DNA of 64,000 bases from Nitrosopumilaceae archaeon (GCA_965208905.1 OZ242365.1:1664001-1728000); one strand, 5' to 3'. Counted from the first letter of the stretch, positions 2,191-56,596 are shown. The notes: a model not told the origin generated them from the letters alone. Translations and numbers: made by a program.

Positions 2191-3108
2191 ATGGAATGCA
2201 CCCATACAGAGACGGTAACCGACCTTGAGCGTGGTGAGGTCATCTGCAGTATGTGCGGTGAGGTAATTACACACTCGATACCGGATTTGACCCAGCCTGA
2301 TCAACACTATACGTCAGAGGAGTATGCGAAGCACGCACAGAACGGTCCCTCCACGTCATTGGCGATGTATGATAAGGGGCTTTCCACGATTATCGGCTCC
2401 AACCGGGACTCTGCGGGAAATACGCTCCCGGTAGAATCAAAGCACGACTTTACCCGGCTACGCAGGTGGGATTCGCGAAGCAAGTCCCGCTCGACCGCCT
2501 CACTGGGCAAGGCCTTCATACTATTATCTTCGATAAAAACCAAACTAACCATACCGGATCATGTGGTAGAGAGGGCCGCCATAATATACCGCAAGGCAGT
2601 AAGTGCAAAACTCACCCGGGGTAGAACCATATCTTCTCTATTAACAGCATCACTATACATCGCCTGCCGTGAGAGTGGCACGCCCCGCACACTTCTTGAT
2701 CTCTCTACTGCAGCAAACATAGACAAAAGGATACTCTACAGGGACTTGGCTACCATCACCAAGAAGTTCAATATACAGCTGGAACAATACGACACATCCT
2801 CCTTTGTCGTAAAGATATCCAACAACCTAAAACTCACCGAAAGGACCAAGCGTATCGCACTGGACACACTGCTGTATATGCAAGAGAATGCGCATACCTC
2901 CGGCAGGCGTCCGATGGCGTTGGCTGCCGGATTGGTATATGCAGCCGCACTGCTTACCGGAGAGAGTTTGACACAAAAGGCGCTCTCTTGGCATACTGGG
3001 ATCAGTGAGGTGACTTTACGAAAGACATGGAGTGTCATACGGGACCTGCACGGCATACCCGGCATGCCGGTGGCTGAGATGGCCGGCACATCTGCTGCCA
3101 AAAAATAG
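2191..3108 (+). CDS. tfb: Transcription initiation factor IIB paralog 1
   Basis: Zn ribbon (C-x-H...CSMC), DKGLSTIIG linker, two cyclin repeats (RGRTISSLLTASLYIACR); ATG 27 nt from TATA. Confidence 0.95.
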   Translation: MECTHTETVTDLERGEVICSMCGEVITHSIPDLTQPDQHYTSEEYAKHAQNGPSTSLAMYDKGLSTIIGSNRDSAGNTLPVESKHDFTRLRRWDSRSKSRSTASLGKAFILLSSIKTKLTIPDHVVERAAIIYRKAVSAKLTRGRTISSLLTASLYIACRESGTPRTLLDLSTAANIDKRILYRDLATITKKFNIQLEQYDTSSFVVKISNNLKLTERTKRIALDTLLYMQENAHTSGRRPMALAAGLVYAAALLTGESLTQKALSWHTGISEVTLRKTWSVIRDLHGIPGMPVAEMAGTSAAKK

Positions 3109-3228
3109 CACGCTCTTTGTCCTCCCACACTTCAATGGAATAGGACTTTCACCCTTTATCTTGCCTGTAAGCATTCAATGTGAATTCCCATATGGTGTGT
3201 TAAACGGCATGGATGCAAAAAAGACCGC

Positions 3229-4356
3229 ATGAAGGAGTATCATCCAACATGTGTGGAGCTGTGCGCCGGAGCAGGTGGTATGGCATTGGGATTGGAGATG
3301 GCAGGATGGCAGCATATTCTGCTGGTGGAGCGCAACATGGATGCGGCGCGTACCATAAAACAGAACAACCCCCAATGGCCGGTAGTATGCGCGGATCTGA
3401 CGGGCTTGGATGCGGGCCGCATACCACACTGCGACATGGTGTGCGGGGGCCCGCCCTGCCAGCCGTTCTCGACTGCGGGGATGCGCAGAGGCAAGCAAGA
3501 CAAGCGTGATGTGTTTATGCCTGCCCTGAAACTGGCAATATCATTGCGGCCATCAGTCATATTGTTTGAGAATGTGATGGGGCTTTTACACAGACAGCAC
3601 GCGCCATATCGGGCATCTCTGGAGCGTGTTGTGTGTAATGCGGGATATGCCGTGCGTTGGATACGAATAGATTGCTCGGATTACGGGGTACCACAGCGCC
3701 GACGGCGCGTGATATTTGTGGCCGCCCGCATACCCCCGTTGACCGAGTGGCCGCCGCTACCTTCCCGTGTAGACTACCCATCACTGCGCGACACATTGAT
3801 AGCTTCGGGGATGCCACCCTCTATGGTGCCGCGGCAGTTGTCATGTAGTGTGAGTCCTACCATAACAGGTGGGGGACGTAGCTTGAATAACGGCACAAAA
3901 AGCAGAAAGATGTGGGAATCACTAGGTATAGAATCCAATTCACTTGATGTATGCGCCCCAACAATAGTTGGTGGGGGGAACGGTCATGGTACATATAATT
4001 GCGGATCAGACCAGAGGCGCCAATGGGCCCGCCTGGGTGTGGATGCGCGGTCAGCCGAGCTGCTCACACCAACAATAATGGGAGGTCATAGCACATGCGC
4101 CAGATCCAATACGGCCGTTACCACATACCGTATGATGGGTCTGGACCCGCGGTGCGCCGAAGGTGGGGAGCCGCATGAGGGGCTGGTGCGCCTCTCCATG
4201 CGCAATGTGGCCGCCATCCAGGGGTTTCCCACACATTATGAGTTCTCTGGGAAAAAGGGGTCTCAATATCAGCAGATTGGCAATGCATTTCCGGCGCCGG
4301 CGGCCAAGCAGCTGGGTAAGTGGGCCCGGAACCTGCTGTCTTGTCCTAGCCCCTAG
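3229..4356 (+). CDS. C5-cytosine DNA methyltransferase (orphan)
   Basis: LCAGAGG, GGPPCQPFS, FENV, QRRRR, QGFP and YQQIGNA motifs. Confidence 0.95.
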   Translation: MKEYHPTCVELCAGAGGMALGLEMAGWQHILLVERNMDAARTIKQNNPQWPVVCADLTGLDAGRIPHCDMVCGGPPCQPFSTAGMRRGKQDKRDVFMPALKLAISLRPSVILFENVMGLLHRQHAPYRASLERVVCNAGYAVRWIRIDCSDYGVPQRRRRVIFVAARIPPLTEWPPLPSRVDYPSLRDTLIASGMPPSMVPRQLSCSVSPTITGGGRSLNNGTKSRKMWESLGIESNSLDVCAPTIVGGGNGHGTYNCGSDQRRQWARLGVDARSAELLTPTIMGGHSTCARSNTAVTTYRMMGLDPRCAEGGEPHEGLVRLSMRNVAAIQGFPTHYEFSGKKGSQYQQIGNAFPAPAAKQLGKWARNLLSCPSP

Positions 4357-5275
4357 GCTTCCTGTATTTAGTGGGATGTATTGCATTGCATCCCGGACAC
4401 AGGTGGTTCCGTTCCACCCACCGACATCCCGGCACCTTGTATTGTACAGCACGTATCTGTCGTACCTGGTATTTTGTTATCCGGGGATTAAAGTCGGGGG
4501 CGCCGGTGAACATGTCGTTTATTGTATCATCATCAAGGCCGGTATGTATCGCATATGTGGCTACCAACAGACGCCCCGAATGAGACAGATTCTCACCCCT
4601 GTTCATCGTTGCGCGGGCCTGTGCCACACACGGAGGCTCATCGCCAACATCTATCATGGGCGCCTGCTGCTCACACCATTGTTGTACGTCTGACGGCACC
4701 TGTACTGTATCCGGCATGTTCTGTATGTTCATTATGCGGTTTCTTATGTATGCGGCAGCCGAGTCCCGTATCAGACGCACGTAGTCGCGTTTGCCCAGAT
4801 GCACGAGTCCGCCGTACACGTCCTGGTTTACCAGCTTCCATGATACACCAAGTCCAACGGCCAGATGTATGTAGTCGGGAACGGGTATCGTGTATAGGGC
4901 GCCGTCCCTGCCCGGCTTTATGCCAGCCACCTCCCCGAATACCGCGCCGGTCAGCTGCGCATCATCATACATTAAATGCGAGGCATATACGGCCTCGTTA
5001 TGCGCAAACCTTCCCACCAGGCGCCTGTTTCCCGTCTTTTTGCACATCATGGCCGCCACCAAAAATGACAGGGTGCCCTCGGGTTCCATATACTTGTGAT
5101 TATACATTATGCTGCTTATCGGGAGGCCTTTACTCCATGCATCCCACCGTGCAGTGGCCGGGTGCATCCCGTCCAGAGCGGCGCGTATCCTGTCCGCCCC
5201 CGTCCTTAGGGACTCTTTGGGTATGTCCTGCATGTTGCGTACATGCTCGGCGGCCTCGGGCATCCAGTGTATCAT
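4346..5275 (-). CDS. priL: DNA primase large subunit-like protein
   Basis: WKLVNQDVYGGLV, PPCV, NLSHSGR, APDFNPRITKYQ and C-terminal Cys cluster typical of PriL. Confidence 0.85.
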   Translation of the reverse strand: MIHWMPEAAEHVRNMQDIPKESLRTGADRIRAALDGMHPATARWDAWSKGLPISSIMYNHKYMEPEGTLSFLVAAMMCKKTGNRRLVGRFAHNEAVYASHLMYDDAQLTGAVFGEVAGIKPGRDGALYTIPVPDYIHLAVGLGVSWKLVNQDVYGGLVHLGKRDYVRLIRDSAAAYIRNRIMNIQNMPDTVQVPSDVQQWCEQQAPMIDVGDEPPCVAQARATMNRGENLSHSGRLLVATYAIHTGLDDDTINDMFTGAPDFNPRITKYQVRQIRAVQYKVPGCRWVERNHLCPGCNAIHPTKYRKPRG

Positions 5276-5375
5276 GCTGTTTTACTCATCCATATCTTAA
5301 AAGGGGAAATGTTCAGTCCAGCCGTCATCTACAGAAACGCGGTAGTCAGGGATGCGCAGCAAAAGCACGGCAGCG

Positions 5376-6110
5376 CTAAAACTCTTGGACTATCTTTGGT
5401 TTGGGATACTCATCATATATGCGGCCATCAATCATGCGGCCACCACTATTTGGGCGTATCCCACCCCACTGCTTGAAGAATACGGGTACGTTCTGCTCCC
5501 TGCACTGACGTATTATGTTTAGAATCCATTCCTTCCGTACCGGCCTGTAGTGTGCACCACTCTCGCCGCCTATGATGCACCAATGTATGCCGCTCAGGTC
5601 TAACTCCCCCACGTCTCCCAGTAGTGGCTCGAAACTAATGAACCGTACATGGCAGTTTACATTGCGCAGCTCATCCAGGCGGTGCATGTTGTCTGCATTC
5701 TCTATACTCGTACCCATCCATATGTGGGGCGGTATTATGTGCGCATTTGACCATTCCGCCATTATGTGGGGTCGCTTTGTCAGTATCTGGTATGTGTGCC
5801 AGTCGGCCTCACACATCACGTCAAAGACCTTCTCCAAAAAGCCCGGCGTCGCCCTTCCGTAAAACAGATCAGACATCGAATTGACAAATATCATACGTGG
5901 CTTCCTCCAGCGCAGTGGTATGTCCAGCGCGTCCTCGTGCTCCGTGTATCTAAACTCATTACGATACTTCTTTAGTCCCTGCGCATGCAGACGTTTTGCC
6001 ATTGTTTCCGCATAGCAGTTCCTACAGCCCTCGGATACCTTTGCGCAACCGGTGGTCGGATTCCAGGTGGCCTCGGTCCACTCTATGCCTGTCATCGTCT
6101 CCTCCTGCAC
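5376..6110 (-). CDS. DUF5131 (phage Gp37/Gp68) three-Cys radical-SAM-like protein, copy 1
   Basis: IEWTEATWNPTTGCAKVSEGCRNCYA, FVNSMSDLF, GGESG, FFKQWGG. Confidence 0.93.
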   Translation of the reverse strand: MQEETMTGIEWTEATWNPTTGCAKVSEGCRNCYAETMAKRLHAQGLKKYRNEFRYTEHEDALDIPLRWRKPRMIFVNSMSDLFYGRATPGFLEKVFDVMCEADWHTYQILTKRPHIMAEWSNAHIIPPHIWMGTSIENADNMHRLDELRNVNCHVRFISFEPLLGDVGELDLSGIHWCIIGGESGAHYRPVRKEWILNIIRQCREQNVPVFFKQWGGIRPNSGGRMIDGRIYDEYPKPKIVQEF

Positions 6111-6916
6111 ATCAGGTGCTGAAGGTCGGGGAACATTTCCAGTATATCTCGGATCCTGCTGCGGACTGTTGCGGCGGTGACTCCGGCACTCTCGGCCAGT
6201 TCACCCTGTGTTATGTTGATGCCTGTCTCACATGCGGCCAGATATATTGAAGCGGCGGCCATTCCCACCTGGCTCCTGCCGGCCGTAATCCTACTGTCAT
6301 GCGCATGATACAGTATGTTTATCGCCCGGCGCTTGGTCTTTTCGGGTAGATTCATTGTGTTGCATATGCGCGTTACATACGGGGCCGGGTCACACTGTTG
6401 TATCCGTATATCCAGTCGTGCAACAATCTGTTTGTATGTCCTATACACCACCTTCTCCTTTGTATTTGATACAGTTATGATGTCTGATACGGTGCGGGTT
6501 ATGCCGCTCTCCCTGCACGCTATGTACAGCGCCGCGGATGCCACTGTTCGCCCGACTGTTATCTTTTTGTCTGCGGCCTGCCGGTATATTGTGGCGGCCC
6601 ACTCCACCACATGATCCGGAATCCCGAGTTTCCCCTTTACTGTGTGTAGTAGTGTGAGCGGTTTGAGCATCTTGGCATCCATTTTGCTCCGTGAATCCCA
6701 TTTGCGCATACGGTTAAAGTCGTGTTTTGATTTTGGTGAAAGTTCCCTACCTGCCGAGTCCCTGTTTATACCCATGGTCGCCGACAAGCCCCGGTCATAC
6801 GTTACAATGGGCGTAGATTGTGCAGGAAGAGAATCGGATATTACCTCGCCGCACGTACTGCAGATGACCTCACCACGCTCAAGGTCGGTTACCGTCTCTG
6901 TGTGGGTGCATTCCAT
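6092..6916 (-). CDS. tfb: Transcription initiation factor IIB paralog 2
   Basis: Zn ribbon plus two cyclin repeats; start moved to ATG 6916 (28 nt from TATA, N-terminus nearly identical to paralog 1). Confidence 0.93.
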   Translation of the reverse strand: MECTHTETVTDLERGEVICSTCGEVISDSLPAQSTPIVTYDRGLSATMGINRDSAGRELSPKSKHDFNRMRKWDSRSKMDAKMLKPLTLLHTVKGKLGIPDHVVEWAATIYRQAADKKITVGRTVASAALYIACRESGITRTVSDIITVSNTKEKVVYRTYKQIVARLDIRIQQCDPAPYVTRICNTMNLPEKTKRRAINILYHAHDSRITAGRSQVGMAAASIYLAACETGINITQGELAESAGVTAATVRSRIRDILEMFPDLQHLMCRRRR

Positions 6917-7014
6917 GCCGTGCAACGGAACGGTTGCATAAAAAGGCGGATATGGGTTGGGAATAAGTAGGGCGGGTCTATTTCCACCGCAGACGTACAA
7001 TTACACGATTCTTC

Positions 7015-7805: not shown

Positions 7806-8005
7806 ACAGTATTTACAGATCCGTCGCTTTTAAGGGGGGAATCTATGCGCGGGCGCCAGGACACGGCAACTCACATAATTCCCGGTTACGGCGACCGGAC
7901 CCGCCGGTAGTATTGTTCGGGCTCCACACGGCATGTGGGCGAGTCCACGGTATATGCGGTAGCAGTACACCTAATCCTTATATACTATAACAGCATATAT
8001 AGTGT

Positions 8006-8831: not shown

Positions 8832-8903
8832 AGCAGGGTAGGGAAGCAGCATCCCGGCGGGCCCATAACCCGCAGACCGGTGGTTCAAATCCGCCCCCTG
8901 CTA
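8832..8903 (+). tRNA. tRNA-Met(CAT), initiator type, atypical (C33, short D-loop)
   Basis: Cloverleaf AGCAGGG/CCCTGCT with A1:U72, GGGA/TCCC, GCGGG-CCCATAA-CCCGC, GGTGG-TTCAAAT-CCGCC; TATA 28 nt upstream. Confidence 0.88.
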
Positions 8904-8996
8904 CTAACTTAAAAAATGCAGAATTTGGTCTGTAGAGTACATTTACGGGTTCTTATGCAGATACGGCTCTTGGACAAACATGGGTGCTATACGTAA

Positions 8997-9476: not shown

Positions 9477-9614
9477 GCGTATGACACATACCACTGACGT
9501 TAAAGGGAGGTTATAGGTTAGAACTGGCGCATCCAGGTGTCTGGGGCATGGTGGTGCTGGTGACTAAGTTTGGATACAACAGCCTATTGTACAGCAGATA
9601 TTGGCGGCGAACCA

Positions 9615-11541: not shown

Positions 11542-11599
11542 GCCATCATACAGCTCGGCGCCTTAAAAGGAGAGTTCAAAAACAGAAAAAAGGGAGATA

Positions 11600-13519
11600 T
11601 TACTGTGTACGCTCAGTCCAGATACATGCATTGGGCGATGTGGCCAGATATTCGATGCTGACAACGCCAGCATTGGTTATTTCAGTCTGTGAGGCGAGGA
11701 AGTTTTCATAACCAACTATGAAGTCGGATGTGGTCATCAGGTTGCCCGTCTTTGCCGGTGCGCCAAACTCTGTTGTTATTATCGTGCCTTCGGAGTTGTC
11801 ATGTATGCTGATCTTGTCGAAGGTGCTGATGAACGTATTGGATGTTGCGGCCTCAAACTTTGTTATCGTCACAGCCTCACTACACGTCACATCTATCGGT
11901 CGTACATCATACCCAACACTCCTTGCATCTACAGTTATGCCCAGCAACTCTGTCTGCAACCGAACATCACCACTTGGATGTGATCCACTCATGGTGAATG
12001 TACAGTCGTTATTTGTTGTGTCTGTAAGTATGGTAAAGTCCACGTCGAATACCTTCGCGGCCTTTTCTGCCGCAGTCGGCATCGACCGATCAGCAAGTGT
12101 TAATGTGTTGTTCCAGTCTGCAAGTTCCACACTGATGTTATAGTCTGCATTGTTTCCACTCAGTTTTACCAGTTCCGAGCCCGGTACAGGCTTGTCAAAT
12201 ACATGATATACTGGGGCGTTTGTAGGCTGGAACTTTTGGTTAACCATCTCTACGTTTATGGGTGATGTCAGGGCAATCAGTGTATCATGGTCCCTCTCAT
12301 CGTTTGCATAATCTGGACTGGTGTTTACATTGTAGATGCCGTTGTCCGCCTCGTTGAGTACTATATCAAGTTCGGTTGGCGTATGCTCAAACAAACATGA
12401 TATTGTAGCTGTTGCGTATGCATCATCGTTTGCGTCCATCGGCCATGCTAGTATATCACCTACAGTAACGGGGAAGCTAAACTCCCTATATCCCAAGGTG
12501 CCCTGTATGGGTGTTGGTTCCTCTGGTGTGGTGGGCGTGGTTGGTGTGGTAGGCGTAGTGGGTGTTGGTGTGGTAGGCGTGGTTGCTGGCGGTACTTGTA
12601 ATAGTTTGGCAGCTTCTGCTATACGACACTGATCATCATGCCATACGGCCTCACTGATGCCAACAAACACCCGTATATTGCAGTCTTCGGCATCAAAGGT
12701 GCCATGCCCTGCATTTATCATGGTCTGCGCAACATCATACGTATTGCATTGTACGAGCGCCTTTGGGGGCGAGGCCTTTGGCCGTGTGTCGGGTATGACG
12801 GTTATTGGCGCATCACCGCATATGTCAAGCAGATAACTGATTGCAGCCCGGCCGCCAGGCTCAGAAAGACCCGGCACGTCCACGAACGCAAGATCATATG
12901 TGTCTAATACACCATCACCGTCTGTGTCTATCTGTATGGTATCACCATCTATTATGTGCCTGTCAGTTACTACTGGTGCGCCTGGTTGTGTTTGTGTAGG
13001 TCCGGGTTTTGGTGTATGACCCGTGTCGGCCACACATACACCACCCTCAAAGATGGTGCCCTCACCGCAGTATGATATCGATATGTCTGCTATACATGTG
13101 TCCAGGTGCTGGATAGTACCCTCACCACATGAAATCTTCGCCTCGCATATGCCTGCCATATTTACCTCGGCATCACATCCGACTATCTCGGCCACGCATA
13201 TACCACCAATGGGGTATGTGCCCTCGCCGCAGACCTGTCCAAGCAATGCTGACTCAATGTTCTTCAAAGCTTGCGCATTCTCCTGTAGTGTTACCTTGTT
13301 CTCGTCCACTGATGCAACTATGCCGCTCATCCCGTCTAACGCGACGCGTACCTCGTCTATCAGATCATTCAGTGTCGGTACTATCTGGCTTATTGTGCTT
13401 GATATCCGCAACGTCGAATCATAGATGTCGCTAATCAATTCGGTGTTTGACTGTGCATAGGCCGGAGCCACTGATATGACCAGTAAGGCCAACAGTGCTC
13501 CGGATATTATTTTTCTCAT
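11600..13519 (-). CDS. Secreted protein with coiled coil, Cys repeats, thermonuclease-like domain and Pro/Thr linker
   Basis: Signal peptide ending AYA; CGEGT repeats; IIDGDTI...LAFVDVP SNase-like; (PTT)n linker. Confidence 0.75.
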   Translation of the reverse strand: MRKIISGALLALLVISVAPAYAQSNTELISDIYDSTLRISSTISQIVPTLNDLIDEVRVALDGMSGIVASVDENKVTLQENAQALKNIESALLGQVCGEGTYPIGGICVAEIVGCDAEVNMAGICEAKISCGEGTIQHLDTCIADISISYCGEGTIFEGGVCVADTGHTPKPGPTQTQPGAPVVTDRHIIDGDTIQIDTDGDGVLDTYDLAFVDVPGLSEPGGRAAISYLLDICGDAPITVIPDTRPKASPPKALVQCNTYDVAQTMINAGHGTFDAEDCNIRVFVGISEAVWHDDQCRIAEAAKLLQVPPATTPTTPTPTTPTTPTTPTTPEEPTPIQGTLGYREFSFPVTVGDILAWPMDANDDAYATATISCLFEHTPTELDIVLNEADNGIYNVNTSPDYANDERDHDTLIALTSPINVEMVNQKFQPTNAPVYHVFDKPVPGSELVKLSGNNADYNISVELADWNNTLTLADRSMPTAAEKAAKVFDVDFTILTDTTNNDCTFTMSGSHPSGDVRLQTELLGITVDARSVGYDVRPIDVTCSEAVTITKFEAATSNTFISTFDKISIHDNSEGTIITTEFGAPAKTGNLMTTSDFIVGYENFLASQTEITNAGVVSIEYLATSPNACIWTERTQ

Positions 13520-13541: not shown

Positions 13542-13556
13542 CGTTTTTGGGTTACA
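13542..13556 (-). promoter_or_regulatory. Class II promoter motif TGTAACCCAAAAACG
   Basis: One of six copies; 29 nt to ATG 13519. Confidence 0.75.
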
Positions 13557-17347: not shown

Positions 17348-17348
17348 T

Positions 17349-22626: not shown

Positions 22627-22641
22627 CGTTAATGGGTTACA
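22627..22641 (-). promoter_or_regulatory. Class II promoter motif TGTAACCCATTAACG
   Basis: 28 nt to ATG 22605, heading the surface-protein/TadC operon. Confidence 0.75.
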
Positions 22642-23239: not shown

Positions 23240-23269
23240 GCAATGTAACGTATCCATCGTATATAAGGG
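23237..23269 (-). repeat. 33-bp promoter/leader identical to 49874-49906
   Basis: catgcaatgtaacgtatccatcgtatataaggg at both sites. Confidence 0.92.
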
Positions 23270-23954: not shown

Positions 23955-24664
23955 CGTGTTAGGCGCAGTCTGGACTGCGCCATCATACCGGCGGCCATCG
24001 CGCCAACACCAAATATCCACATTGCCGCCCCAAACTCCGGTATGGCGACAGCATTAGCAGTCAGCACAAGCGTATCAGAGTCGACCGAGTACGCATACTG
24101 CCCGCCATCGATATGTGTTATGGAGCCGCCATCTACAGCCAGCAACTCGCCCTGAACGAGTCCCGGCGGTAGAAACATCACACCGCTCCCAGGACCCTCA
24201 AATCCGATATACAGCAGGCCGGCCTCCGCATCCGTGTAGGCATCATGTATAGCATCGCCGGTATACTGTATTATGTGTTCGGTCCCATTCACCAATACCT
24301 CGCCCTGCTGATATACGGTATAACTGAACACATCGGTTGCATAGTGTATTGTATGCTTGGTAAGCGAGTATTCCGCCTGTATTGTGTATGTGCCGGGCGT
24401 GTCGAACTCTGCAGGTATGCTCCACTGCCAGTCGCGCTCGGTCGGCATTATCTGTCCGACGGCTATTATGTTGCCGTTGGGCGCCAACAACTGTATGGTT
24501 ACCGCCCCGCCGTGCATCTTGTGCAGCACGCCATGTACCTGCACGGTATCACCCGGACTGTATACGTCCTGCGCAACCTCCACGCTTATGCCGGATATGC
24601 TCTGCGCATGGGCCAGCCCAATGCCTAGCAGTAACGGTATTGCACACAGCAGCATGTATCTCAT
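23951..24664 (-). CDS. PEFG-CTERM surface protein
   Basis: Signal peptide; C-terminal IPEFG plus TM plus Arg tail. Confidence 0.85.
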   Translation of the reverse strand: MRYMLLCAIPLLLGIGLAHAQSISGISVEVAQDVYSPGDTVQVHGVLHKMHGGAVTIQLLAPNGNIIAVGQIMPTERDWQWSIPAEFDTPGTYTIQAEYSLTKHTIHYATDVFSYTVYQQGEVLVNGTEHIIQYTGDAIHDAYTDAEAGLLYIGFEGPGSGVMFLPPGLVQGELLAVDGGSITHIDGGQYAYSVDSDTLVLTANAVAIPEFGAAMWIFGVGAMAAGMMAQSRLRLTR

Positions 24665-25191
24665 AGCATATCCACCTTTAGCGTACCATCGGTCTTTACG
24701 TAGTTCCGCAGTGTTCCGACATTCACCCCGACGGCATCGGCCACACCCTGTATCGTTACAGTCTTGTGTGCTGTCATGTATAGCATGATTGCTGCGCGTA
24801 TGGGCGCGCCCAAATCACACCTGAAATCATCAATTCCCATACTGTCCTGTATGTTACTGGGTAGGTTTAAGCGTTTGATTCCCCTCTCTATGAAGCTGCG
24901 CACATCCTGCGGCGGCATCCCATCATCAATCATACGCGCGGCCCGCCCGATTGATGCTCCCTTCTCGTTTGTGTTTTGTATTATTTCCTGGATGGTATTC
25001 GGTTCGCCGCTACGCCGTATTGACACATAAACAGATGCTGCGACGACAAGTCCCACATGGCACTGCCGGAGCAATCCCCTGGCAACGGCCTCCCTGTATA
25101 CGGCGGCCGCACCCCCGGCATCCACGTTTAGTGCATTGCATAGTTGCTGTATGTTGGATATGTCGCGTTTGATGAACCGCTCCTGTCGCAT
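24661..25191 (-). CDS. Truncated TFB paralog 4 (cyclin core only, no Zn ribbon)
   Basis: IQQLCNALNV...VVAASVYVSIRRSGEPNTIQEI; C-terminal HTH TIQGVADAVGVNVGTLRNY; own promoter 27 nt upstream. Confidence 0.75.
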   Translation of the reverse strand: MRQERFIKRDISNIQQLCNALNVDAGGAAAVYREAVARGLLRQCHVGLVVAASVYVSIRRSGEPNTIQEIIQNTNEKGASIGRAARMIDDGMPPQDVRSFIERGIKRLNLPSNIQDSMGIDDFRCDLGAPIRAAIMLYMTAHKTVTIQGVADAVGVNVGTLRNYVKTDGTLKVDML

Positions 25192-25230
25192 ACCAAATAC
25201 TGTATCGGCGATATATAAGGGAGAATATAG

Positions 25231-25875: not shown

Positions 25876-25890
25876 CGTTTTTGGGTTACA
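25876..25890 (-). promoter_or_regulatory. Class II promoter motif TGTAACCCAAAAACG
   Basis: 28 nt to ATG 25854. Confidence 0.75.
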
Positions 25891-25954: not shown

Positions 25955-26770
25955 TTAGGCGCTGCGGACTATCTTGGCAAGGGCAGTATATCTATTGGCC
26001 AGTGTCGTATCGGCGATGCCGGCAGCCTTGGCGATATTGTGCCGTATTATGGGCTCGCCGCGTTCGACGCACGCCATGTAGAGCGCACTCGCGGCCAGAC
26101 TGATCGGACTCTTACCGGCGACATCGGTATTGTTGAGGTTTGAGAGTATTCGTATGGCATCGCGCCGTACAGCCTCACCAATACCTGCCTCGCTTCCTAT
26201 GCGGGCTATGAGTGAGACGGGGTCGGGTATGGGTAGGACTATGTCAAACCTCTCAAATATCTGGCGATATACTCGGCGTATGATGTGCTTCGATAGGCCC
26301 GTCACCGCCACTATATCATCCAGTGAGCGTGGGAGGTTGTGTTTCCGACATGCCAGCAGGGCTATTGCAGCAATAAAGTGTGTGAGTGTGCGGCCGGCCA
26401 TGAATTTTGATGCCACAATCCGCCGGAACATATACACTGCATACTCGCCTGCTGCGTCGGTCATAGACAGTTCGGTGCGTATTTTGGAGAGTTGCACCAG
26501 TCCGACAGGCAGCGAGCGCTGCTCGTACGTCTGGCACCAACCATTGACGCGCTGTAATCGCTTTGTGTTGATAATTTTTGTATCGATTACACGGCCTATG
26601 TAGTCTTTTGTGTGCTGGCCCATTGTCGTGGCAAAGTTGTAGGAGCGTGCATCACCTGCATATCCTGTCTGTTTTGGTTGTTCCATACTGTATCCGTGGA
26701 CCGTGCCGCATATGCGGCAGACGAACTCTCCATCGGCGTCCACAATCGTACCTTCACAGTTACATTTCAT
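25955..26770 (-). CDS. tfb: Transcription initiation factor IIB paralog 3
   Basis: CNC...CRICG Zn ribbon; GRTL...ACRKHNLPRSL; GKSPISLAASALY. Confidence 0.92.
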   Translation of the reverse strand: MKCNCEGTIVDADGEFVCRICGTVHGYSMEQPKQTGYAGDARSYNFATTMGQHTKDYIGRVIDTKIINTKRLQRVNGWCQTYEQRSLPVGLVQLSKIRTELSMTDAAGEYAVYMFRRIVASKFMAGRTLTHFIAAIALLACRKHNLPRSLDDIVAVTGLSKHIIRRVYRQIFERFDIVLPIPDPVSLIARIGSEAGIGEAVRRDAIRILSNLNNTDVAGKSPISLAASALYMACVERGEPIIRHNIAKAAGIADTTLANRYTALAKIVRSA

Positions 26771-26834
26771 ATACTATATACGTTGTTGCAGTATATAAGG
26801 GTTAGGTGTTGTGATGGTTAAATACTGTATGCTA

Positions 26835-27050: not shown

Positions 27051-27070
27051 AAAGCTCCTGATCACAGTAG

Positions 27071-27375: not shown

Positions 27376-27404
27376 TAGTAGCATACTACGATCTACTGAT
27401 CTAG

Positions 27405-44232: not shown

Positions 44233-44420
44233 TCTGGCATCTAGGTTTGACAACGCCTTTTCTTGGAAACTGGGAAATTATAGGTACAGATTGTATAGTG
44301 GGAAATGGGATACATAACTAAAGGTGTCAAGACATGGTGACCGTAGCGTTCACACATATGCTCCCATGCCTCAAGATTGACTTTTACCGCCTTAAATACT
44401 GCCGATACGTTACCACACAA

Positions 44421-47207: not shown

Positions 47208-47222
47208 TGTAACCCATTAACG
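47208..47222 (+). promoter_or_regulatory. Class II promoter motif TGTAACCCATTAACG
   Basis: 30 nt to ATG 47246. Confidence 0.72.
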
Positions 47223-48625: not shown

Positions 48626-48974
48626 TTGCCGCCTCTCGCAGTATGACGCTGATTAACTGGCTATCGTTTTTGATCCCGCTCATCTCCTTCAACCATTCAA
48701 CCCTGCCCTCCGACATGCCGTCCAGACTGGCCAGCACATAACACGGCTTTTCGTCTGGCGGCCATCGTTTCCCGGGAGCATGCCGCATGCGCTCCATCTC
48801 ATCAGCCCCACCACTACAATAATACCACAGCAGGAAGCCCACACCCCAAGCGTTGGGCGTACCATCCCATGTGGTGCCCCGACGCGCGATGTTCCGGGCC
48901 AGCTCCTCATCTGATAACGACATGTCCAAGTCGCGCGGGTCAAACTCCATGCTTTGTATTGCTACGCATTCCAT
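48615..48974 (-). CDS. Hypothetical protein with C-terminal RHH-like segment
   Basis: RVEWLKEMSGIKNDSQLISVIL. Confidence 0.6.
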   Translation of the reverse strand: MECVAIQSMEFDPRDLDMSLSDEELARNIARRGTTWDGTPNAWGVGFLLWYYCSGGADEMERMRHAPGKRWPPDEKPCYVLASLDGMSEGRVEWLKEMSGIKNDSQLISVILREAANDA

Positions 48975-49026
48975 TTAAGGCGCTATATGGGTGTCCCCTT
49001 TTATACCGCCAATACGATACAATCAC

Positions 49027-49876: not shown

Positions 49877-49917
49877 GCAATGTAACGTATCCATCGTATA
49901 TAAGGGGTAAAAACCAC

Positions 49918-49932
49918 TGTAACCCTTTAACG
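49918..49932 (+). promoter_or_regulatory. Class II promoter motif TGTAACCCTTTAACG
   Basis: 30 nt to ATG 49956. Confidence 0.72.
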
Positions 49933-50354: not shown

Positions 50355-50417
50355 GAATTTTTCCCTGTTTTTTGAAACCCATATAGCGCCTTATATCGTA
50401 TGGTACAGTATGATGGC

Positions 50418-50639: not shown

Positions 50640-50982
50640 TACGGTAGCCGGCTTGGTTGCCGGGCGGAATGCGTATGTGGCATCACCATATGGGGATGCA
50701 GATGCGCGGCGGTATGACAGATATGATGCAGTATTGCGCATGTGCGGCTATCTTATATCCGCCGGCGTGCGCGCATACTCACCCATAGTATACACACACC
50801 ACATACATGAGGCGGGCTACACGCCGCCGGATGGCTGGTATGAGTATGATCTGGGTATGTTGGGCATGTTTGATGTGCTGCTTGTATGCATGCTGCCAGG
50901 CTGGGAGGAGTCGCTTGGCGTACAGAAGGAGATTGCGCGCGCAAAGTCACTGCGCAAGCCAATACTATACGTGCGCGTCTAA
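50620..50982 (+). CDS. DUF1937 / nucleoside deoxyribosyltransferase-like protein
   Basis: YVASPY, YSPIVYTH, LPGWEESLGVQKEI. Confidence 0.8.
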   Translation: MESHALDTVAGLVAGRNAYVASPYGDADARRYDRYDAVLRMCGYLISAGVRAYSPIVYTHHIHEAGYTPPDGWYEYDLGMLGMFDVLLVCMLPGWEESLGVQKEIARAKSLRKPILYVRV

Positions 50983-53900
50983 TCATCCCCAATACCCAGC
51001 GTGCGCTTGTATTTTGTAATCACCAAAAACAGTACGGCTCCAACCACAATCGCCGGCATATACAGCCACAATACGCCACCAACCTCGTCTGTATCATATA
51101 CGGATATCTCCAGAGGTTCGGCGGCGGTAATCTCCGAGGACATCTCACCCCCATACACATTCCGTATGGTAACAACACCACCCTCCTCGTATGGTATAAT
51201 GCACGTGCTGCACGGCGTATCCACATCCTGCTTGATGCCGTCAATCAATACCTCGCGTACCGCACCAAATGTCTCAGGCGGTCGCACGTATATTGTGTCG
51301 GAGCGCTTGTTGTCCCGGCCCATATCCATATTGCCGACACCGTAATAGTCCACATATATCACGGTATTGTCTACACCCTCGCTTATCACATGCGTATCAT
51401 ATATCGGAATACCATTACAGCCGGGAGCCCCACCACCACTACATACTGCCTTGATGTGCAGTTTCTGCGGACCTACACTGGACATAACCGCCTCGTATGG
51501 CATGTCCAGTATGGAGAACGACTCTTCGGGCTCCTCACAGATAACATGTGGTACTAATTCACCCCCTATGCACTTGTAGTTTGTTGTGGTCTGTTTGCAT
51601 GCCTGCACACTCTGGCACGCGTAACTCCCCCCATCATTATAGTCCACATCCTGTACACTCACCCTCTTTATCTCATTATTCTCTACATTCTCGCAGCGTA
51701 GTATCCTGTTTGAACCTGCCTCCCACTGCAACTCATCCAAGGGTATGGGCTGCATCCCGTTGTCTGTCATGCGGCCATACATACCATCATATACATAAAC
51801 GACGCTCGGCTTCAGACCGGTTATATCATACGCTGCCGGAAACTCCCACTGCTTGTGTATGCCGTCCTGCGTAAACACATTCACGCACCTCTCATCCTGA
51901 TGTGCAATGCAGTCCTGTATGGAGTTGTCCCGCATACAATCCGACATGCGTTGTACTGTTTCAGGACATGATGTGTGGCCCGGTGTTACGTGCGGGGCCC
52001 ACAACCATTCAGTGCACTGCCCCCTGTGCTCCAGTATGCCCAATGTATCCAGCCACAGGCCGTTTCGGAACACCTCAACGGTAACATCGTCAACCCCACT
52101 CGCTACGGTCCATGGCTGGCCTGCCTCGCGCTTGGCCGCCGGTCCGTGCTTGGCGCCCTCGTAATCCTGTATAGTCATTGAGACGCCGGGCCTGTCCCTG
52201 CAGGACAGCCCATGCCAAAAGTCCCATATGGCCTCACCCCAGTCAAGGCTGAATATATTCAGTATGCTTCTGCCCTCGTCCCCGTCCACCATGCACTCGT
52301 GCATAATCATCTCGTGCGGTTCGGTTACGGGCCACATCTGTTCGGGGTATGCGGTTATGCGCAGTTCCACACCACCGCCGACCTCCCAGGGCACATCGCA
52401 CTGTACGCACGGTTGTATAGCCAGTACGCGCGCCACCGCATCATATTGTATGGTGCTTGGCGGAGTCTCCATTCCGGTTGCATGTGTTGTACCCCAGGAT
52501 TGTATTGTGCTGTTCCAGTATATGGTATCGGTGGGCCGTACATCACACGTACCACATACATCAAAGCGTATAACGCCCGTACCCGCGTGCAGCATCATCG
52601 TCGTATTACCAATACCGACATGTGATGGGGAGGATACGGGCCACTGCGGCGTGTACAACTCCAAGTCTCTTGATGTCTGGTGTGTATCCCGGGTAAACGA
52701 TATAGTCCCATATGGCGGCAGGCATGCGGGCGGCCAGTATTCATCAAATACCGGCTGGTACAGGGGCGGCATTGTCGCAGCGGAGGGTATTCGCTTTATG
52801 CTATCAAAGCTCTCAGGATCCTGGCATGTCTGATACTGTGTATGTGTATCGTATGTATCGCCAGCTGAGAGACACCATGGCTCCTGCACATCACAGTATC
52901 TATGCTCGCCATCCACAACATACGGTATTGCTATGTAATCACCAACCTTCTCAAAAGGCAGTATTGTATCATCCCTGATGCTATCAAACGATATGCCGTC
53001 TGCATCCACACTGCCATCAGGCGTAATGGTGCCGATAATAACAGCAGGATCGCAGTGTCCGTCGGGCCCGTCCTGTATGGTGTATGCATCGCTTAGACAC
53101 GCATCCAAATCATCACCACCATCCCGACCAAACTTTGCCCAGCAGTCCCCCACTGCATTAAACATCACGCCGGTACGATCCAGACACTTCCGTATGCCGT
53201 CCGATGTAAGCATATCCCAGTTGTCGGATATGTTGTTCCCGTCCAAGTCCGTACCCGATTCGACCACATCACAGATGTTGTTGTTGTCCGTATCCGTACA
53301 CGAGCAGTACAGACTGCCGTCCGATGTAAGCATGTTGCCCGGCCGCTCCACAACACCACCGAATGCCCCGGTTGTGGGCGTGTACGGCACATATACCAGC
53401 CGGTTGCTCCCGTCCCAGAACGGCTCCGGTGGGGTCGGCGAGAATTTTACCCCGCAGTCAGATTCCATGCATTCGCGCCAGTCATGTATGATATCACCGT
53501 TTATGGCCGGCTCATACATCCCTATGCTGAATCGCGCATGACACAGATAAGGGGTCGTAGTACCGCTCCCAATCTCGCTTGTATCGATAATTGGCGTCTG
53601 CACATCATATATGACACCCAAGTCAGTGCAGAGTGATACCATCACCTCATCTATCGTACGATATGACTCGCGCACGCACTGCGCGGTCGGTGATGCGCCG
53701 CACCACTGTATGACCATCTGCTCAAGGCGCTCATGCCCTCGTATGATATAATCATCCGGATATAAGAATGGCTGAAATACATCCTCGCATCTGCGATCAT
53801 GCTCCGGCTTGCACTCCCCGCCCCGATATACGCCACAATCCCTGTCCAGTATGCGTGAGAGTCCAATCGAGTGCTCGCACTGCACCGAATCCAACACATA

Positions 53901-55601
53901 GTGCTGTGGCATGTTGTCTGGCGAGCCTGAAAATATGCCCCTGTACGAGTAAGGAGTGACATCATCGCCGTATTGCGCAGCAAAGCCCGTCATGCCCCAG
54001 TCCTCGGGCTTTGGCTGGTTGACCTGCGCCCCTCCTTGGCTGGCTATCTGGTCCATCACACAATACGGTACAAAGTCCCTGTCCGTGCCGGGCGCATAGT
54101 CCCAGTTCAGGTATGGCGTGTCATGTGTTGTACATTCGCCATCAAGGCCGCACACGATATACTGGCCGGCAAGGCCGTCAAGCTTGGCACGCGTCTCCGG
54201 GTTGAGCGCCGACCACCTGCCCCACTCAAATGCTGCCGGCTCTGGTGGATATACCGTATATGATGATGGCGATACTCCGACAACGCCGTACGGCGCATCC
54301 TTGTCGGGGCACAACTCCCCCACTGTACGTCCCCACACATCGGTCGAGCCGGTCTGCCCGAATGGTACCGGCGCGCCATCCACATCATGTATGGTGCCAA
54401 CCGTACAGTAGTGCAACGTGTCGGATATTGTGCCATTAAAATCGACGATGACCGAGACCGGCCTGTCCATGGCTGTATCCCCACCCCAGGCAGTATTTGT
54501 GATGGCTGTTGTGTTTATCGCTGGGTTATACGTCGGGACAAACTGATAGGTGGTGTTGTATCCCTTTGTGATGTACTGGCCGTTATTCGTCATTGTGGCA
54601 GTAATCTGTACCGGGCCGCTCTGTCTGGCAGATATTACAAATAATGATTCGCCCTCGTCCAGTTTGCCTGGTACACCAGCCTCCGGTTCCTCCCACGGTA
54701 GGTTTTTTGCGTCTAGTTGTTGCGCACGATGCCCTATGTAGTCTGATGTACTATCAACCCCCGACAAGTCTATCCTGCATGTCTTCTCATTACAGTGAAA
54801 CTCCTCCACACTGCTTGTAGTGTCGTGTGTTATCTTTATTGTCTCATGCCTGTACGCGCCATACATCAGATTTGAGCCAACCTCCAGTGGTATGGCATCT
54901 TTGGGATAATTCGAGTAGTCTAAATTTGAGGCAGGATATCCCTCCATATCCAATATGTGATGCTCGTATATTGACGTCTCCCAGAAGGGGTTGCGGTATT
55001 GGAATCGCGGGTGTATTGTTGCGGTAGCCACCTGACAACCGTAAAGTGGATCATCAATCCCGCCGGTTACCGTGAATGCAGCACCGCCGGTAAGACCGCC
55101 CCCCTCCTGTATGCCGTTCTGGTGGGTGCGCGCACGTCCGTCTGAATCGTATTCGACAGTGTGAATGAAGCCATCATGTATGACACTGCCCGGCACCGGC
55201 TCGCTTGTTATTATCCTCATTTTCTGCGCGTATTGTATTGTCCCACTACCAGTACCGGCTACACCCCCAGAATCTCTGATGGAGTCCACCTCCGACCACC
55301 GGCCATCTGCCTTAGGTCCGTCTATCCCCATACCGCAGTTGCAATACTCGCCGATACTGTATCGTATACTCCCACCCACAGAGTCGCCGGGATACAGCGA
55401 TGGGTCATGCGGCGAGTTGTTTGTCGGAACAAACTCCCTACCGACATCATCCCCATACCATGAATACCACTGTGTTGCTCCCACCGTACAGGTAACCCCC
55501 CGAACCGTGACCGAGTCAGTCGCACTGTCGGATCCATCACCATACGCAATACCAACGACACAAAGTAGTGGTATTACACATGCTAGTCTGAGGCAACCCA
55601 G
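50979..55601 (-). CDS. Very large Cys-rich surface protein/adhesin with C-terminal TM (start uncertain)
   Basis: Over 1500 aa; frame is open upstream of 55484 and encodes a signal peptide; DTDNNNICD Ca-binding-like motifs. Confidence 0.8.
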   Translation of the reverse strand: MGCLRLACVIPLLCVVGIAYGDGSDSATDSVTVRGVTCTVGATQWYSWYGDDVGREFVPTNNSPHDPSLYPGDSVGGSIRYSIGEYCNCGMGIDGPKADGRWSEVDSIRDSGGVAGTGSGTIQYAQKMRIITSEPVPGSVIHDGFIHTVEYDSDGRARTHQNGIQEGGGLTGGAAFTVTGGIDDPLYGCQVATATIHPRFQYRNPFWETSIYEHHILDMEGYPASNLDYSNYPKDAIPLEVGSNLMYGAYRHETIKITHDTTSSVEEFHCNEKTCRIDLSGVDSTSDYIGHRAQQLDAKNLPWEEPEAGVPGKLDEGESLFVISARQSGPVQITATMTNNGQYITKGYNTTYQFVPTYNPAINTTAITNTAWGGDTAMDRPVSVIVDFNGTISDTLHYCTVGTIHDVDGAPVPFGQTGSTDVWGRTVGELCPDKDAPYGVVGVSPSSYTVYPPEPAAFEWGRWSALNPETRAKLDGLAGQYIVCGLDGECTTHDTPYLNWDYAPGTDRDFVPYCVMDQIASQGGAQVNQPKPEDWGMTGFAAQYGDDVTPYSYRGIFSGSPDNMPQHYVLDSVQCEHSIGLSRILDRDCGVYRGGECKPEHDRRCEDVFQPFLYPDDYIIRGHERLEQMVIQWCGASPTAQCVRESYRTIDEVMVSLCTDLGVIYDVQTPIIDTSEIGSGTTTPYLCHARFSIGMYEPAINGDIIHDWRECMESDCGVKFSPTPPEPFWDGSNRLVYVPYTPTTGAFGGVVERPGNMLTSDGSLYCSCTDTDNNNICDVVESGTDLDGNNISDNWDMLTSDGIRKCLDRTGVMFNAVGDCWAKFGRDGGDDLDACLSDAYTIQDGPDGHCDPAVIIGTITPDGSVDADGISFDSIRDDTILPFEKVGDYIAIPYVVDGEHRYCDVQEPWCLSAGDTYDTHTQYQTCQDPESFDSIKRIPSAATMPPLYQPVFDEYWPPACLPPYGTISFTRDTHQTSRDLELYTPQWPVSSPSHVGIGNTTMMLHAGTGVIRFDVCGTCDVRPTDTIYWNSTIQSWGTTHATGMETPPSTIQYDAVARVLAIQPCVQCDVPWEVGGGVELRITAYPEQMWPVTEPHEMIMHECMVDGDEGRSILNIFSLDWGEAIWDFWHGLSCRDRPGVSMTIQDYEGAKHGPAAKREAGQPWTVASGVDDVTVEVFRNGLWLDTLGILEHRGQCTEWLWAPHVTPGHTSCPETVQRMSDCMRDNSIQDCIAHQDERCVNVFTQDGIHKQWEFPAAYDITGLKPSVVYVYDGMYGRMTDNGMQPIPLDELQWEAGSNRILRCENVENNEIKRVSVQDVDYNDGGSYACQSVQACKQTTTNYKCIGGELVPHVICEEPEESFSILDMPYEAVMSSVGPQKLHIKAVCSGGGAPGCNGIPIYDTHVISEGVDNTVIYVDYYGVGNMDMGRDNKRSDTIYVRPPETFGAVREVLIDGIKQDVDTPCSTCIIPYEEGGVVTIRNVYGGEMSSEITAAEPLEISVYDTDEVGGVLWLYMPAIVVGAVLFLVITKYKRTLGIGDD

Positions 55602-56086
55602 AGTACATCACCTGTATCCGTAACGAGTATGAGCGGGTCCGAACACGGCCAGGGGTCAACCCGCACCAGAACAGAATACTTGGAATCCAGCGTCTGGTTA
55701 TACAGGTTTATGCTGTTGCCGCCCCCATCCGTACATGACCATGAGGGACTGCACGACGCCACCCTTGTGTTGCCCAAATCAACATATGTGATGTTTGCAT
55801 GTATTGCACCGCCGTTCTGATCATACGCCTTGAACGGTATGTTGGTAGAAAAGTCCCCGTAATTCACCACCAAAAATGTCAGAGGCGTGCCAGCCTGACA
55901 TTCCCGGCTTGTTACGTCAAGCTGCTCTACCGCCTCTGCGCGCAGCCTGTCCATCCTGGAACGCGTATCATCGGTCATCACCAGGGCGCTCTCACTAAAC
56001 GCGCCAAGCATAATGGTGGCAACAACCGCAGTGGCGCCCAGTATTATGGTAGCCGAGACTATCTCGCCTACGCCATATAGCCTCAT
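55583..56086 (-). CDS. Archaeal type IV pilin-like protein
   Basis: MRLYG/VGEIVSATIILGATAVVA class III signal; FLVVNYG. Confidence 0.8.
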   Translation of the reverse strand: MRLYGVGEIVSATIILGATAVVATIMLGAFSESALVMTDDTRSRMDRLRAEAVEQLDVTSRECQAGTPLTFLVVNYGDFSTNIPFKAYDQNGGAIHANITYVDLGNTRVASCSPSWSCTDGGGNSINLYNQTLDSKYSVLVRVDPWPCSDPLILVTDTGDVLWVASD

Positions 56087-56559
56087 CGAACCTCAACTAC
56101 CCCCGAGACCGAGTGCAGGGGGCCGCGTATTATATAGCCCAGCGTATCACCCCTCTCGGCATCAAAGCCCACATGTACCACACCCTCATATTGTACTTGT
56201 AATGCAGAGCCGGCCTGCTGTATAGTCTGACAGTCATGTATTGTATTGTTTCCCATTGCGCTTGCGCAGTCCGTGACAACCACCATGCCGGAATAGTCGC
56301 ATGTACTCCTGCCGTCTTTGGTCTCCAAACACAGATTGATGTCGCCCTCAAACTCAAGGGGCCCGCCAGGATACGTCATGGTAACATATATCCAAACCAA
56401 ATGCGAGGTGCCAAACCTGTCCCATGCCTCAACCCCCACATTCGATATCGCATATTCGCCGTATGTGTTGGCCGCATCTATCATTACCCCGGCCGCCACT
56501 ATGCCTGCCGCGCCCGCGCTAAGCATAATCAGCATCGAACCGGTAAGCTCTACTACCAT
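56083..56559 (-). CDS. Pilin-like protein
   Basis: N-terminal hydrophobic helix; first gene of the operon. Confidence 0.6.
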   Translation of the reverse strand: MVVELTGSMLIMLSAGAAGIVAAGVMIDAANTYGEYAISNVGVEAWDRFGTSHLVWIYVTMTYPGGPLEFEGDINLCLETKDGRSTCDYSGMVVVTDCASAMGNNTIHDCQTIQQAGSALQVQYEGVVHVGFDAERGDTLGYIIRGPLHSVSGVVEVR

Positions 56560-56581
56560 GATGTATAATGTGCGCGGGATA

Positions 56582-56596
56582 CGTTTTTGGATTACA
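56582..56596 (-). promoter_or_regulatory. Class II promoter motif TGTAATCCAAAAACG
   Basis: 29 nt to ATG 56559. Confidence 0.75.

Follow-up and report, generated by a model that had tools for sequence, protein, structure and literature searches.

All integrative and conjugative elements (ICEs) described for Thaumarchaeota encode homologues of the transcription initiation factor TFIIB (Krupovic 2019, PMC6563490), and it has been proposed that such homologues could alter promoter specificity (Abby 2018, PMC5797428). In archaeal type IV pilus loci, TFIIB is reported as the most common predicted regulator (PMC4858521). The second cyclin fold of this factor (TFB in archaea) reads the B recognition element (BRE) of the promoter and its Zn ribbon recruits RNA polymerase (reviewed in PMC7289017). 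We analyzed a stretch of 64,000 nucleotides (the window; G000:C1:1,664,001-1,728,000) in the genome of a Nitrosopumilaceae archaeon (G000; a single contig of 2.21 Mb with 45.6% G+C), for which an original prediction had proposed a set of element-encoded TFB paralogs with two private promoter classes. The two promoter classes are real, largely island-private and functionally partitioned. The explanation that we consider best as a whole, and to which we give about an even chance, is that the window is the middle of an integrative-conjugative-type island of ~190 kb (at about 1.59-1.78 Mb of the genome) that carries a private kit for promoter recognition and, for its leaderless genes, two promoter architectures of its own.

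The island resembles the thaumarchaeal ICEs, as far as these are described in the sources cited, in encoding VirB4-like and VirD4-like proteins, TadC, a FlaI-like protein, a prepilin peptidase, pilin-like proteins and TFIIB homologues. It differs from them in its predicted cognate promoter classes, its several TFBs including a core-only form, its two TBPs, and its size (~190 kb versus a stated ICE median of 64 kb; PMC6563490). Ammonia-oxidizing archaea (AOA) are described as having several TFBs and only one TBP (PMC12448741), whereas this genome contains four TBP genes. In most ICEs, the TFIIB gene is located directly upstream of a ParB-like gene (PMC6563490), whereas the genes following TFB1, TFB2 and TFB3 of the window encode a C5 methylase, a DUF5131 protein and a 207-aa transmembrane (TM) protein, respectively, and Pfam searches gave no ParB match at E ≤ 0.01 next to a TFB gene in the window. 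The novelty claimed in the original prediction was overstated, as TFB homologues on such elements and the idea of altered promoter specificity are already present in PMC6563490 and PMC5797428. In the accessible text of Krupovic 2019 (PMC6563490) the word 'promoter' occurs 0 times, and in titles and abstracts of the open-access literature we recognized no paper in which such elements are described as having TBPs, core-only TFBs or promoter motifs cognate to their factors. The finding is real and partly new, and the mechanism proposed for it below is a hypothesis.

A TFB paralog that switches on pilus and DNA-transfer genes is known from Sulfolobus (TFB3; PMC6101591, PMC6101594), and the promoters that depend on it share a conserved short motif (PMC5817253). 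Unlike the island factors, Sulfolobus TFB3 is chromosomal, does not replace the canonical TFB and acts in trans together with it (PMC7289017). In haloarchaea, combinations of TBP and TFB paralogs give some promoter specificity (PMC7289017, PMC2396416), but these paralogs serve stress responses and global regulation of the host, whereas here the extra factors are encoded on a mobile island and the promoters are island-restricted. The sigma cascades of bacterial phages and plasmids may be compared to the island in that an element-encoded initiation factor and private promoters separate gene sets; this is an analogy only, as TFB works together with TBP, which is also island-encoded. To our knowledge, good evidence for promoter selection by archaeal TFB/TBP paralogs exists only for haloarchaea, and the subject is unexplored for mobile elements.

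To describe the island promoters, the host promoter was used as reference. Genes were called with a crude, purpose-made caller that accepts only open reading frames (ORFs) of at least 90 aa, which yielded 1912 genes. In a motif-free count, TATA-like 5-mers peak at -30..-27 from the ATG (TAAAT, 148 observed versus 25 expected). An iterated position weight matrix (PWM), for which 629 of 1694 host genes were selected, places TTTAAAW at -30..-24; the BRE, at -35..-33, is A-rich, and 62% of the genes have A at -34. The TATA part of this logo is partly circular, as TATA was used for selection, and the BRE part is not circular. These statistics suggest that host genes are largely leaderless and that the distance to the ATG can therefore replace the distance to the transcription start.

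The class II promoter is defined in this genome by the 15-mer TGTAAYCCWWWAACG, located at about -37..-23. Six exact copies are present in the window, where 1.32 would be expected even with 2 mismatches allowed and 0 of 100 shuffled sequences reached six. Genome-wide (2.2 Mb) there are 13 exact copies, 12 of which lie within 250 kb (1,531,287-1,778,423); the thirteenth (559,922) precedes a paralog of the 132-aa TM protein of the window and adjoins a paralog of the 487-aa gene of the window. An ATG-ORF of at least 45 aa starts at 19-26 nt from all 13 exact copies, compared to 21 of 416 sites with three mismatches. Eighteen sites combine at most one mismatch with an ATG-ORF at this distance, and 17 of these are in the island. 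The distance to the ATG is 21 nt at eight, 22 nt at six and 23 nt at four of them, always in one orientation, so that the fixed position that had been predicted holds for 18/18 sites, with distances of 21-23 nt. The nucleotide at -1 of the ATG is a pyrimidine in 14/18 cases and G in 0/18. Apart from a flanking C at -1 and, after the motif, a C at +18, the flanks of the 18 sites are unrelated, indicating that the sites are not copies of one repeat; a repeat or miniature inverted-repeat transposable element was thereby ruled out. A 5' UTR or RNA element was considered as well and rejected, as no second TATA box is found at a fixed upstream distance and the motif itself lies at the BRE/TATA distance of the host.

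Placed on the host logo, class II reads T-37 G T A-34 A-33 C C C-30 W W W A A-25 C G-23, with invariant G/C on either side of a short A/T core. Because the host TATA box of leaderless genes lies at -30..-24, class II occupies the position of BRE plus TATA box, and because the AA at -34/-33 and an A/T core are kept, it is a variant BRE/TATA. Of the orthogonality proposed for class II, the concentration in the island stands and a wholly foreign character does not. The fit of class II to the host consensus is weak: its median host-PWM score is 0.9 bits, compared to 5.7 bits at the 75th percentile of the host, and 9% of random positions reach 0.9.

All six class II sites of the window precede an ATG at the expected distance. 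The site at 13542..13556 (-) lies 22 nt before the ATG of a 639-aa secreted protein (11600-13519). The site at 22627..22641 (-), 21 nt before the ATG at 22605, heads a run (15452-22605) of genes encoding a 118-aa TM protein, proteins of 1085 and 550 aa and a 631-aa TadC-like (T2SSF) membrane protein; the latter (15452-17347) ends this run of large genes without Pfam match. The site at 25876..25890 (-) lies 21 nt before the ATG (25854) of the 207-aa TM protein, and TFB4 and three further genes follow downstream on the same strand, to 22658. On the other strand, the sites at 47208..47222 (+) and 49918..49932 (+) lie 23 nt before the ATGs of a 60-aa TM protein (47246) and the 132-aa TM protein (49956), respectively. 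The site at 56582..56596 (-), 22 nt before the ATG at 56559, heads a run (50979-56559) encoding hydrophobic proteins of 158 and 167 aa and a 1501-aa protein.

Class I was scanned for as CCTTWWA at -36..-20 of called genes, with the island span set at 1.52-1.79 Mb for the count. The motif lies 27-30 nt from the start in 42/218 island genes, compared to 60/1694 genes elsewhere, and at least 17 of these 60 are repeated insertion sequence (IS)-type genes according to our own reading of the list. When 38 unique cases from the island are combined in a logo, C at -2 and, downstream, A-Y-C-R appear as additional features; host promoters aligned likewise do not have the A-Y-C-R element. Among the 15 class I cores of the window are those of all four TFB genes: a class I-like core (CGC+TTTTAA) at 2161..2169 (+) before TFB1, and cores at 6939..6946 (-) before TFB2, 26794..26800 (-) before TFB3 and 25214..25220 (-) before TFB4. 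Another core (5297..5306, -) precedes the PriL-like gene, and the remaining ones are located at 7829-7835(-), 7976-7982(+), 9500-9506(-), 11563-11570(-), 23262-23268(-), 44388-44396(+), 48974-48980(-), 48995-49003(+), 49899-49905(-) and 50387-50395(+).

Across the genome, IS/TnpB copies likewise have promoters that resemble class I, in that C or CC immediately precedes a T-rich TATA box. The same arrangement is found at 3/4 TnpB copies read in the related genome G083, which is without the four window TFBs and the window transfer core and whose TFB scores match those of the non-island TFBs of G000. Because of these promoters, class I is probably readable by host factors. Class I had been predicted to be private to the element; it is enriched and position-fixed in the island and largely, though not wholly, private to it. 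Comparison of element and host upstream regions indicates that both motifs are concentrated in the island and are not equally common in host promoters. As a separate observation, about 13 copies of a 451/452-aa TnpB-type gene (for example at 33,607; 102,962; 339,752) have a nearly identical promoter, CCCCTTAAATACC...ATACCGTATTA.

The two classes precede different sets of genes. Class I precedes replication, repair, TFB and TBP genes and class II precedes membrane, secreted or type-IV-secretion genes. The first gene behind the promoter encodes an N-terminal hydrophobic segment in 14/18 class II cases and 0/38 class I cases (33/156 for all island ORFs), and the four remaining class II genes encode a VirB4-like ATPase, a FlaI-like ATPase and two small coiled-coil proteins. 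Class II sites are present at the VirB4-like gene, the FlaI-like/VirD4-like pair and the run ending in the TadC-like gene; no class II site was seen at the prepilin peptidase gene. The difference between the classes is significant (Fisher p = 5e-10), although this value overstates independence because some of the class II genes are paralogs. The proposed division between DNA metabolism and membrane/transfer functions is thus borne out by the counts.

Of the TFB paralogs encoded in the window, three are full-length and one is a short form that consists of the core only. TFB1 (2191..3108, +, 305 aa from the ATG), TFB2 (6092..6916, -, 274 aa; followed on the same strand by a DUF5131 gene and the PriL-like gene), the divergent TFB3 (25955..26770, -, 271 aa; directly upstream of a class II promoter) and TFB4 (24661..25191, -, 176 aa; two cyclin repeats and a helix-turn-helix (HTH)) are the four genes that had been predicted, and 2191, 6916, 26770 and 25191 are their ATG starts. 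Their recognition helices read exactly as had been given, EVTLRKTW, AATVRSRI, DTTLANRY and VGTLRNYV, respectively. The HTH is present in all four and the host sequence EVTIRNRY/C in none; the two best-scoring host TFBs, both outside the island, have EVTIRNRY and EVTIRNRC. Judged by these sequences, the window TFBs are TFB family members with non-canonical helices. PF00382 matches with two repeats each were found at 2182-3108(+) (93.5 bits), 6092-7000(-) (116.9 bits) and 25955-26770(-) (93.6 bits), and the match at 24661-25191(-) scores 21.6 bits, under the cut-off of 23.6. Genome-wide, PF00382 identifies ten TFB-like frames, five of which are in 1.61-1.69 Mb; the island TFBs total five, and the fifth (TFB_1612k), outside the window, has a further differing helix. 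The Zn ribbon (PF08271) scores 26.6 bits in TFB1 and 27.9 bits in TFB2, under the cut-off of 29, with C-x-H...C-x-x-C present; TFB3 gave no Pfam match for a ribbon, and C-x-C...C-x-x-C is visible in it. A chromosomal TFB at 348 kb has 59% identity to TFB1, whose first 20 aa are identical to those of TFB2, and TFB3 shows 24-30% identity to all other TFBs of the genome.

TFB4 begins at the first cyclin repeat and contains no Zn ribbon and no B-reader. It is 28% identical to a host TFB over 162 aa (tblastn, E 4.6e-5). Seven homologues (182-206 aa) all have PF00382 and conserve LRNYV in the helix, and the AlphaFold model (pLDDT 82.9) matches the TFIIB/TFB cores 1vol_A, 1d3u_B and 1ais_B over ~177-188 columns (E ~1e-5). 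The gene had been described as truncated: it is indeed short, and since it belongs to a family of homologues and matches a core fold over its whole length, it is a conserved short form and no decayed fragment. Sulfolobus TFB3 keeps the N-terminal part and has no BRE-reading core; island TFB3 is full-length with HTH, and the core-only TFB4 shows the opposite truncation. A search of 201 family genomes gave strong matches to the TFB4 family (at least 146 bits) in three of them only, namely G000, G125 and, with two copies, G018. The matches in 25 other genomes (74-80 bits) are read as ordinary TFBs, because all but one are in frames of at least 300 aa. Viral contigs gave no match to the TFB3 or TFB4 alignment, and metagenome contigs none to the TFB3 alignment or the TadC-like protein. 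At E ≤ 1e-20 one TFB3 homologue was found (94% identical), a cut-off so strict that it says little about rarity.

Two of the four TBP genes of the genome are on the island. They are divergent and both have class I promoters. The host genes for TBP and TFB are located at 678 kb and 2,045 kb and at 1,382 kb and 1,010 kb, respectively. One of the island TBPs (1,630,858-1,631,376; L003:858-1376), whose gene precedes the class II site at the VirB4-like gene by 1 kb, differs from the other three TBPs in the second repeat, with Y and H in place of F (MYAG for QFPG and RIH for LLF); we take these positions to be the DNA-kinking phenylalanines.

In the mechanism that we propose, the promoter-recognition kit of the island would comprise its five TFBs, including the core-only TFB4, together with its two divergent TBPs. 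Class I (C-rich stretch, TTWWA, downstream A-Y-C-R) would drive the replication and repair paralogs and all TFB and TBP genes of the island, and class II (AAYCC-WWWAA-CG) would unite the scattered genes for the pilus and type IV secretion in a single regulon. With regard to the pairing of factors and promoters, we infer that a general factor encoded on the island most likely reads class II; TFB3 is the best candidate, possibly together with an island TBP. For TFB3 itself, control by palindromic operators, in an array that is unique, is predicted. At the same promoters, TFB4 would be a modulator or competitor, because the N-terminus that recruits RNA polymerase is absent from it.

TFB3 orthologues were found only in G125 (three copies, 48-51% identity) and G145 (39%), and a contig search of the genomes for loci of the TFB3 clade gave records from G125 and G145 only. 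In the helix of this clade T-L is invariant and the Arg of TIRNRY is lost. The three bases 5' of AACCC and the helix residues following T-L combine, in the five cases, as TGT with ANRY, TGT, TGA or TCC with YNRY, TCT with SMRY, CCA with STHF and ATG with SKKY, a sample too small for a judgement on co-variation. A class II-type site lies at most about 5 kb from each of the five genes of the clade (G000, three in G125, G145), and in G000 and G145 this site is the next promoter downstream of TFB3. Upstream of the TFB3 promoter in the window there are four copies of a 19-nt palindrome (CTGTAATAAATTATTACAG and variants; 26835-26869 and 27012-27050), which is found nowhere else in the genome at up to 2 mismatches, so that TFB3 alone has such an array. 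Of the four other genes of the TFB3 clade, three have TGTAAY words close to their promoters. The palindromes and the TGTAAY words suggest that TFB3 is a regulated node, and they do not indicate its DNA target. The palindromes adjoin a perfect array of 62 GTAGT units (27070-27379), ~300 nt upstream of TFB3, which may be variable in length; a 119-aa ORF over this array was rejected as a repeat artefact. At 26942-26951 (+) there is a core of class I type, CCTTATATAC, which faces the palindromes and the pentanucleotide array and not TFB3. It is not followed by an ORF at the usual distance and may give a non-coding transcript.

The genomes of 201 members of the family, 10 of the genus and 301 of the order were compared. 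Sponge and marine sequencing runs (X5-X23) also contain part of the stretch. Within the family, more than one copy of the exact class II 15-mer is present only in G000 (13), G083 (6) and G018 (4), which belong to one genus; a reversed-pattern control gave 0-2 matches versus 13-18. The strongest comparative evidence comes from G125. In 196 kb of island DNA with 59-67% GC, the 12-nt core of the motif occurs 10 times, eight times with an ATG-ORF at 21-24 nt, and seven of these eight proteins start hydrophobic; the G125 transfer genes are only 65-68% identical at the nucleotide level to those of the G000 island. Across the relatives AAYCC-WWWAA-C(G) is the invariant part of class II. Over the 301 genomes of the order, the 12-nt core is unspecific in AT-rich genomes and most counts are near the control, with G000 (18 versus 2 reversed) and G209 (8 versus 0) above it; the tallies of this core and of the TFB4 family include G077, G343, G404 and G093, which are flagged unpublished and on which no claim rests. 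A single 15-mer, TGTAATCCATAAACG, occurs once each in G040, G042, G054, G064, G098, G142, G162, G181 and G187 (five other genera) and is probably part of some conserved host sequence. In G125, a giant island of ~65% G+C (C1, about 2.32-2.45 Mb) has TFB matches (PF00382) at six places and TBP matches (PF00352) at four.

The motif and the extra factors tend to occur together. The motif-free genomes G043, G065, G100 and G113 of the genus have the two usual TBPs only and no TFB3- or TFB4-type gene, and G000, G083, G018, G125 and G145 have the motif or a variant of it and at least one extra TBP, four of the five also having TFB3 or TFB4. G135 has an extra TBP and no exact 15-mer. The co-occurrence proposed for TFB clades and motif in relatives was thus seen. 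It is no evidence of dependence, because linkage on one element would give the same pattern.

It could be asked whether the motifs have a regulatory meaning at all. They might be inherited promoter copies or a by-product of base composition, with the extra TFBs and TBPs as passenger duplicates. The G+C content of the island is higher than that of the genome (about 50% versus 45.6%), and some class II genes are paralogous (1730118/1778423 and 1592243/1677542, for example), as such an origin would have it. Against it speak the unrelated flanks of the 18 sites, the low counts in the reversed-pattern control, the core kept in the GC-rich island of G125 next to transfer genes of low identity, the functional split (with the non-independence of paralogs noted above) and the conserved helices that the TFB3 and TFB4 clades each keep as their own. 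We consider this origin very improbable.

Several observations weigh against an island-encoded factor as the reader of class II. The AA at -34/-33 and WWWAA that class II keeps mean that host TBP and TFB plus an activator could suffice. Besides the linkage argument given above, G083 keeps six exact sites before orthologous genes and has neither TFB3 nor TFB4; since G083 is without the transfer core and is 90-97% identical to G000 in matched segments outside it, these retained sites are weak evidence either way. The 5' TGT of the motif is not conserved, being mostly nnA in G125 and ATG in G145. The start sites and the leaderless status of the genes are themselves deduced from sequence statistics. 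Finally, TTAACG-type palindromes upstream of 3/18 class II sites and the TGTAAT half-sites in the predicted TFB3 operators hint at separate dimeric regulators. Class II might then be a weak host-type BRE/TATA used by host TBP and TFB together with an island-encoded, sequence-specific regulator on the conserved flanks, either a TFB-recruiting activator or an occluding repressor, with the island TFBs in other roles. The half-site palindromes, a host-PWM score within about the top 10% of random DNA, the winged helix-turn-helix (wHTH) genes in the window (40535-40993, for example) and the precedent of weak-BRE promoters activated by TFB-RF1, as described in PMC5937170, are consistent with such an arrangement. 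The motif is, however, asymmetric, co-oriented with the gene and at one fixed distance, and it covers the BRE/TATA position itself; 15/18 sites have no upstream palindrome, and no candidate regulator was identified or shown to co-occur. We regard regulation of this kind as possible, though somewhat doubtful.

A stricter version of the idea in the original prediction is a sigma-like cascade, in which each island TFB would have its own promoter class and the classes would be used in a fixed temporal order. A cascade would be in line with the helices, which differ among the four window TFBs and again in the fifth island TFB, and with the class I-type promoter found at every TFB and TBP gene, with class II at none. 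Sub-types can also be recognized within class I, namely a form with downstream CC-R-CC-R-ATAC and a bidirectional form, CATATAGCGCCTTAAATGG. Five TFBs (plus two TBPs) are nevertheless confronted with only two clear promoter classes, a number that also weighs against the kit as we propose it. In addition, TFB1 is 59% identical to a chromosomal TFB that is also present in G083, and the IS copies of G083 have C/CC-TATA promoters too, with the four window TFBs and the transfer core absent. A strict cascade therefore seems improbable to us. Returning to the kit with two promoter architectures, its most complete form would be an orthogonal system in which a TFB of the TFB3 clade and a divergent TBP read AACCC / WWWAA / CG..YCC, with specificity residing in the G/C positions to the left and right of the A/T core, TFB4 is a competitor and the operator array acts as master switch; we put this forward tentatively and think it rather unlikely in full.

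The wider gene content is consistent with a mobile element of the integrative-conjugative type. The transfer set is dispersed over 1.62-1.76 Mb, with each gene present as a single copy according to Pfam and tblastn searches: besides the TadC-like gene, these encode a VirB4-like ATPase (L003:2452-4287; AAA_10, TraG P-loop) and a VirD4-like protein (L006:3597-5855; TrwB_AAD_bind), both outside the window, a prepilin peptidase (L002:9205-9735; Peptidase_A24), and a FlaI-like ATPase (T2SSE; L006:5800-7875, genome about 1,753,300-1,755,375) behind a class II site, which contains an intein (Intein_splicing). RadA, Rad50, Mre11, RNR, TopoVI A/B, Hjc and PriL are second copies, with other copies elsewhere in the genome. 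Island RadA is 90% identical to the copy at 2.19 Mb, and Rad50/Mre11 are accompanied by HerA. Restriction-modification genes are many (MmeI-like, NotI-like, Vsr, Mrr). In the window, which like the island has ~50% G+C, ORF listing and a Pfam scan gave a gene set of mobile-element type, with C5 and N6/N4 DNA methylases, PriL-like, two DUF5131, ArdC-like, HNH, RNase-H-like and ATP-grasp proteins, the wHTH genes, and TnpB, IS110 and rve transposases.

Integrase-type Pfam matches were limited to transposase-type rve, IS110 and TnpB genes, and the 487-aa gene beside a tRNA-Ile gene gave no Pfam match; paralogs of its product are encoded at 557,768 and 2,173,994. The junction of the tRNA-Ile and 487-aa genes (window 58085-58118) has a 34-nt exact inverted copy at 2,100,156-2,100,189, 378 kb away in another high-G+C stretch. 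Neither the repeats of the tRNA flank nor synteny with G083, which is scrambled, gave a clean empty site for the island. Other tRNA genes in the window are an adjacent tRNA-like pair (528-679), to which ARAGORN assigned unusual anticodons (Ser ACT, Arg TCG), and a tRNA-Met at 8832-8904, inside the element, in a stretch that is 98% identical in G018.

The promoters described here are defined, short and position-fixed, and the candidate factors are few, so that a direct biochemical test is possible and a phage-like private transcription programme becomes testable in archaea. If the orthogonal system is true, archaea would have a first counterpart to the sigma-factor programmes of phages and plasmids, here controlling conjugation genes, and an orthogonal factor-promoter pair would be a ready tool for archaeal gene expression. 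For the AOA, the island indicates that conjugative islands can be far larger and more autonomous than described, with their own RadA, Mre11/Rad50, TopoVI, RNR, PriL, TBP and TFB.

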